A program made the translations under genes and the position numbers. Below the pieces are notes generated by a model. That model was not told where the DNA came from. It searched no databases and saw nothing but the letters and a program-made list of their open reading frames with translations. This document shows positions 6,244-6,292 of a stretch of 64,000 nt of DNA, piece after piece. The stretch lies in assembly GCF_003334305.1 (NCBI RefSeq), contig NZ_QOWS01000003.1; one strand, given 5' to 3'. How positions within the stretch are numbered: the first letter of the stretch is position 1; every line of letters starts with the position of its first letter. Origin of the DNA: Escherichia coli. GTDB taxonomy: Bacteria; Pseudomonadota; Gammaproteobacteria; Enterobacterales; Enterobacteriaceae.

Positions 6244-6292
6244 CCATAAACTCAGATTTACTGCTGCTTCACGCAGGATCTGAGTTTATGGG
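6244..6292. promoter_or_regulatory. Inverted repeat ccataaactcagat ... atctgagtttatgg in the melR-melA divergent promoter region; candidate MelR operator pair
   Basis: 14-bp arms read directly (6244-6257 and 6278-6292) about 80-130 bp upstream of melA. Confidence 0.4.

Follow-up and report, generated by a model that had tools for sequence, protein, structure and literature searches.

An inverted repeat between melR and melA of Escherichia coli most probably comprises MelR operator sites 1 and 2

The stretch of Escherichia coli DNA analysed here (64 kb in length; hereafter, the window) carries melR, melA and melB. melR, which encodes a regulator of the AraC family, occupies positions 5182-6090 of the minus strand and matches the NCBIfam equivalog model for MelR (NF007693) with 635.8 bits against a cut-off of 253. 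On the plus strand lie melA, the first gene of the regulated operon, encoding alpha-galactosidase (6373-7728; NF011657, 732.5 bits), and melB, its second gene, encoding the melibiose:sodium transporter (7831-9252; NF007749, 901.8 bits, the alignment starting at residue 9 of an open reading frame whose start is at 7807); adiA is found upstream in the window. The inverted repeat that is the subject of this work sits in the intergenic region of the divergent melR and melAB genes, as established from the NCBIfam equivalogs; RefSeq annotates identical DNA in the same way. Several E. coli chromosomes annotated melR/melA match the 296-bp intergenic segment at 100% identity and, among complete E. coli genomes, the region is present once per genome in 5401 out of 5426, always between genes annotated as melR and melA. 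A match in strain AQ15, the assembly of which is fragmented and rich in pseudogenes, was set aside.

The arms of the repeat, CCATAAACTCAGAT (6244-6257) and ATCTGAGTTTATGG (6278-6291), are 14 nt each, are exact reverse complements of one another and are separated by a spacer of 20 nt, TTACTGCTGCTTCACGCAGG. Outward of the arms, one mismatch (A at 6243 vs G at 6292) is followed by three more complementary pairs; the full repeat unit is 18 bp (6240-6257 and 6278-6295), complementary at 17 of 18 positions. The first-pass annotation of this DNA had given the span as 6244-6292: the arms and the 20-bp gap that it described are borne out, but position 6292 lies one base past the arm. The 64-kb window holds two inverted repeats that are perfect over 14 nt or more per arm and have spacers no longer than 40 nt, whereas about 0.03 are expected per 64 kb in first-order Markov sequences of the same composition; the repeat at 6244-6291 is a real feature, beyond chance. 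The other one, at 102-131, consists of AAGCCAACCTTAAG and CTTAAGGTTGGCTT with a 2-nt loop, followed by TTTTATGTTT, and looks like an intrinsic terminator.

MelR belongs to the AraC family and has five known 18-bp sites, each bound by one monomer: four at the melAB promoter (1', 1, 2 and 2') and one, R, at the melR start (PMC2377442). MelR has been located at sites 1/1', 2 and R by DNase I footprints and EMSA on K-12 DNA; base pair 5 of a site is contacted by N222 of the first helix-turn-helix motif (HTH1) and base pair 13 by R273 of the second (HTH2) (PMC2377442). Site 1 carries the consensus (Samarasinghe et al. 2008, PMC2377442), while site R combines the consensus G5 with a non-consensus A13 and is oriented opposite to site 2 (PMC2377442). 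Further landmarks of the region have been published: the melR start precedes the melAB start by 237 bp, the centre of site 2 is at -174.5 relative to the melR start, the melR -10 hexamer reads CATAAT, CRP2 is 41 bp upstream of the melR start, and CRP1 is located between site 1 and site 2 (PMC2377442).

Compared with this map, the left arm of the repeat is held in the 18-bp MelR site 1, which reads ATCTGAGTTTATGGTAAT in site orientation (6240-6257, minus strand) and is identical to K-12 at 17 of 18 positions, and the right arm in MelR site 2, ATCTGAGTTTATGGGAAT (6278-6295, plus strand), identical at 18 of 18; G is present at positions 5 and 13 of both. In the K-12 derivative XL1-Blue the corresponding sequences, ATTCCCATAAACTCAGAT and ATCTGAGTTTATGGGAAT, form a perfect 18/18 inverted pair around the same 20-bp spacer, K-12 site 1 and site 2 being identical in sequence. 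The two centres are 38 bp apart. The numbering of the sites was verified against PMC2377442 by means of site R, with its G5 and non-consensus A13.

The positions relative to the transcription starts lead to the same assignment. The published melR -10 hexamer CATAAT is read in the window at 6119-6124 on the minus strand, from which melR +1 would fall at 6112; the centre of site 2 (6286.5) is then at exactly -174.5. Given the published 237 bp between the two starts, melAB +1 would be 6112 + 237 = 6349, and the promoter segment 6337-6349 on the plus strand would comprise this start and the -10 region, with CATGAT (6337-6342) as the putative hexamer. A simple sigma-70 scan detected no promoter of consensus type in the region, in keeping with a promoter that depends on an activator. 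With melAB +1 at 6349, sites 1', 1, 2 and 2' are centred at -120.5, -100.5, -62.5 and -42.5, respectively, and the 22-mer that includes the spacer at -81.5. The values -100.5, -120.5, -42.5 and -81.5 agree with the coordinates reportedly given by Belyaeva et al. 2000 (Mol Microbiol).

A melR start at 6112 is agreed upon by the CATAAT hexamer, by CRP2 at -41.5, by G5 and A13 of site R and by site 2 at -174.5; since these four independent landmarks concur, the arms can be equated with MelR sites 1 and 2. With a probability of roughly 95%, the arms are the cores of MelR site 1 (6240-6257) and site 2 (6278-6295) in the divergent melR-melAB region, and the 20-bp spacer is the weak site CRP1. The site 1 of the window, though differing from K-12 at one position, would still be bound by MelR, judging from the published binding to K-12 DNA. 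The first-pass annotation had suggested that the arms may be MelR operator sites arranged as an inverted pair, to be compared with footprinted sites. The melR and melA flanks, the identity to K-12, the published footprints and EMSA and the landmarks all speak for that suggestion, and the published MelR DNase I footprints map to these very sites, not elsewhere. The pair is not, on the other hand, a classical palindromic operator for a single dimer, as every 18-bp site takes one MelR monomer.

Upstream of site 1, site 1' can be placed at 6220-6237 in the published register, 20 bp from site 1 and in plus orientation, the strand being uncertain. So read, it shares 11 of its 18 bases with the consensus and carries G5 and G13. 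In 44 of 91 loci the arrangement that scores best is a plus-oriented site followed by a minus-oriented one at 20 bp, as sites 1' and 1 would be. Across species, only the first half of site 1', CTCTGCTTTT, is conserved, the second half being conserved in neither orientation. The first-pass annotation had pointed to a half-site-like sequence, aaaactctgc, just upstream of the repeat. It lies at 6216-6225 and overlaps a conserved block, A-CTCTGCTTTT (about 6218-6229), i.e. the conserved half of the real site 1'; moreover, AAACTCTGCTTT (6217-6228) matches AAACTCAGATTT (6248-6259) at 10 of 12 positions. The reading of this sequence as a direct repeat of the arm is neither confirmed nor excluded, the scores being similar: a minus-strand site at 6209-6226 has on average 8.29 matches across species vs 8.97 for the published register, over a background of 4.58.

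On the other side, the weak site 2' is assigned to 6298-6315 (plus strand) from the 20-bp spacing to site 2 and from the published description, according to which it overlaps the melAB -35 region and is occupied only with melibiose (PMC2377442). It is a poor match to the consensus, and its GGAAG and GGAG blocks are kept across species. Site R, TTCTGATATTCCAGGAAA (6102-6119, minus strand), overlaps the melR transcription start. It agrees with the consensus in 11 of 18 bases, has G5 together with A13, and in the window is oriented opposite to site 2, as described (PMC2377442).

Two CRP sites complete the region. CRP2 (6143-6164), which activates the melR promoter, has 7 of 10 core matches, the joint best score of the intergenic region, and is centred at -41.5 from melR +1 (6112). 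CRP1, TTTACTGCTGCTTCACGCAGGA (6257-6278), is a 22-bp sequence in the spacer, with its centre near -81.5 relative to the melAB start, and matches the core TGTGA-N6-TCACA at 5 of 10 positions; across species its mean of 3.55 core matches is barely above the 2.58 of shuffled sequences. It is a weak site, the assignment of which rests on the K-12 experiment and is consistent with the published cooperative binding; the spacer of the window is identical to that of K-12, in which CRP1 is experimentally established.

For comparison among gammaproteobacteria, loci were anchored on a degenerate pattern of the MelA N-terminus, FIGAGSTIFVKNI, with one genome per species, so that the repeat was not presupposed. 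The anchor yielded 93 loci, nearly all with a divergent melR homologue (53-99% identity). The best minus-then-plus pair of sites is spaced by 38 bp, start to start, in 65 of 91 loci and by 37 or 39 bp in 6 more. The inverted pair is found in Salmonella, Citrobacter, Kluyvera, Pantoea, Serratia and Edwardsiella, as well as in Aeromonas, Vibrio, Enterovibrio, Psychromonas, Pasteurella and Testudinibacter. In an ungapped alignment anchored on site 1, both sites display a two-block motif, ATCTGAG at positions 1-7 and GGGA at positions 13-16, which is nearly invariant; position 16 is A in 65 of 65 loci. The 20-bp spacer keeps its length, yet carries essentially zero column information in the cross-species alignment. 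It is the two recognition sequences, their orientation and their fixed distance that are kept, which fits two DNA-bound monomers flanking a third protein.

A few loci depart from the common pattern. Three of them in the Enterobacteriaceae (Pluralibacter, Citrobacter portucalensis and C. braakii) combine strong sites with a 39-bp spacing. About 20 loci of the Vibrionaceae (several Vibrio and Photobacterium) give no clear pair of sites in a scan with the E. coli consensus; they may have a diverged motif or a different regulator. Finally, a contig labelled Chryseobacterium sp. 18061 (locus L096) has a melR-melA locus of enterobacterial type that hardly differs from the one in Citrobacter sp. 18056, a genome of the same study; the assembly is probably mislabelled or contaminated.

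A correspondence between operator and regulator is also found in the species comparison. Positions 8-10 and 13 of the motif tend to change in both sites of one genome. One group, formed by Cedecea, Buttiauxella and Klebsiella sp. BIGb0407, has C or A at position 13 of both sites, and in its MelR (loci L008, L034, L074, L083 and L096) R273 and R269 are replaced by S273 and H269. S273 is found only where position 13 is non-G in both sites, while R273 is present in 31 of 31 informative loci with G13 in both. The coincidence of S273 with a non-G position 13 matches the published contact between R273 and base pair 13 (PMC2377442). It probably reflects a single evolutionary event, and is to be regarded as supportive rather than statistical evidence.

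Other explanations of the repeat may be weighed against these data. Were it to act as RNA, i.e. as the hairpin of a terminator, an attenuator or a small-RNA stem rather than as protein-binding DNA, a stable structure would be expected, and for the segment 6235-6300, if transcribed, a folding energy of -28.1 kcal/mol was indeed computed (z-score -8.1 vs shuffles). This stability, however, follows from the perfect 14-nt inverted repeat, and any such repeat would fold likewise. The repeat lies upstream of both starts, between -58 and -105 from melAB +1 and between -132 and -179 from melR +1; a terminator scan detected no terminator-like run of T after it, and a search of Rfam at a permissive threshold returned only two spurious miRNA matches, far below gathering scores. 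Across species it is the fixed motif bases that are conserved, whereas the outer positions 17-18 differ between the arms, which implies that complementarity as such is not maintained. An intrinsic terminator or structured RNA was rejected as a candidate, there being no U-run and no Rfam match near the gathering score and the repeat lying outside both transcripts; a function as RNA hairpin is very improbable.

Similarly, a looped or tetrameric binder could fit a perfectly symmetric repeat whose arm centres lie 34 bp apart, and CRP does bind inside the spacer (PMC2377442), so that the repeat might be imagined as the palindromic operator of another dimeric regulator, be it CRP alone or some other repressor, with MelR bound elsewhere. 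Against this, published footprints, Fe-BABE cleavage and mutational data give these sequences to MelR (PMC2377442); the arms are devoid of a CRP-like core and, in the loci examined, the motif is found only beside melR homologues and co-varies with MelR residue 273. An operator of this kind is thus hardly to be expected here. The perfection of the repeat is also difficult to reconcile with chance, given an expectation of only about 0.03 such repeats per 64 kb, nor does it resemble a functionless remnant of a repetitive or mobile element: the region is single-copy, found at a median of one place in 5401 genomes, and its sequence and spacing are conserved from Escherichia to Vibrio, Aeromonas and Pasteurellaceae. 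An origin of this sort can practically be dismissed, and the identification of the arms with MelR sites 1 and 2 is retained below.

Within E. coli, site 1 is polymorphic. At 6243 the window has A where K-12 has C, i.e. a G to T change at position 15 in site orientation, as a result of which the perfect repeat is 14 nt long and not 18 nt as in K-12; a further C/T difference between the window and K-12 is at 6237, inside site 1'. The exact 30-mer with this site 1 allele is present in 1742 of 5426 complete E. coli genomes (32%). Position 15 is otherwise near-invariant, being G at site 1 in 64 of 65 and at site 2 in 65 of 65 species loci. It is conceivable, if rather doubtful, that the change weakens MelR binding at site 1 and thereby measurably shifts the melibiose induction threshold and/or MelR autorepression in the lineages that carry it; if so, a textbook promoter would harbour, in the site 1 allele, a regulatory polymorphism that is both natural and common.

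A second intergenic haplotype, 80-90% identical, is present in about 1011 complete E. coli genomes (e.g. Ecol_732, in which melR is annotated 24 nt longer). Its differences are concentrated between CRP2 and site 2 (approximately 6150-6280); they extend over the entire CRP1 spacer and reach site 2 at a single base (ATATGAG). Site 1, the greater part of site 1' and all sequence downstream of site 2 are unaffected.

Binding, site orientation and the mechanism of activation and repression are taken from the literature (PMC2377442), whereas the identity to K-12, the landmark positions and the conservation of motif and spacing were computed here. On these grounds, one MelR monomer would occupy each 18-bp site through its two helix-turn-helix motifs, HTH1 reading TCTGAG (the block near position 5) and HTH2 reading GGGA (the block near position 13), and the inverted sites would hold two monomers pointing in opposite directions with CRP between them. 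In the absence of melibiose, MelR is expected on sites 1', 1, 2 and R, a complex of four MelR that would repress the melR promoter, and site 2' would be vacant, leaving melAB silent. With melibiose, MelR would also fill site 2' at the melAB -35 region, which that site overlaps; melAB transcription would then be activated by a complex of four MelR and one CRP dimer.

The inverted pair is the long-known textbook MelR operator, hence not a new feature. The main value of the case is that of a positive control, in that experimentally defined operator sites were correctly picked from sequence alone. Mildly new are only the common site 1 allele and the co-variation of residue 273 with position 13. 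The comparative data make a modest addition, i.e. the conservation of spacing and a protein-DNA co-variation that matches a published contact: an inverted pair of 18-bp sites with an exact 20-bp gap is maintained from Enterobacteriaceae to Vibrionaceae and Pasteurellaceae while the sequence of the spacer drifts.

The closest known system is the K-12 melAB/melR region itself (Busby laboratory; PMC2377442), with which the window shares the locus, the flanking genes and the positions relative to both starts, as well as all 18 bases of site 2 and the 20-bp spacer; it differs at position 15 of site 1 and at 6237. A more distant counterpart is the araC-araBAD system with its sites araI1, araI2 and araO2. 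Both rely on an AraC-family regulator with two helix-turn-helix motifs that binds sites of about 17-18 bp as one monomer per site, and in both the promoters of regulator and operon are divergent, with CRP between the site clusters. Likewise, in both systems a promoter-proximal site overlapping the -35 region is filled in a sugar-dependent manner, and the regulator represses its own gene via distal sites. Unlike the situation in araC-araBAD, MelR sites 1 and 2 are inverted, and MelR repression involves four MelR in a compact complex with no visible loop.
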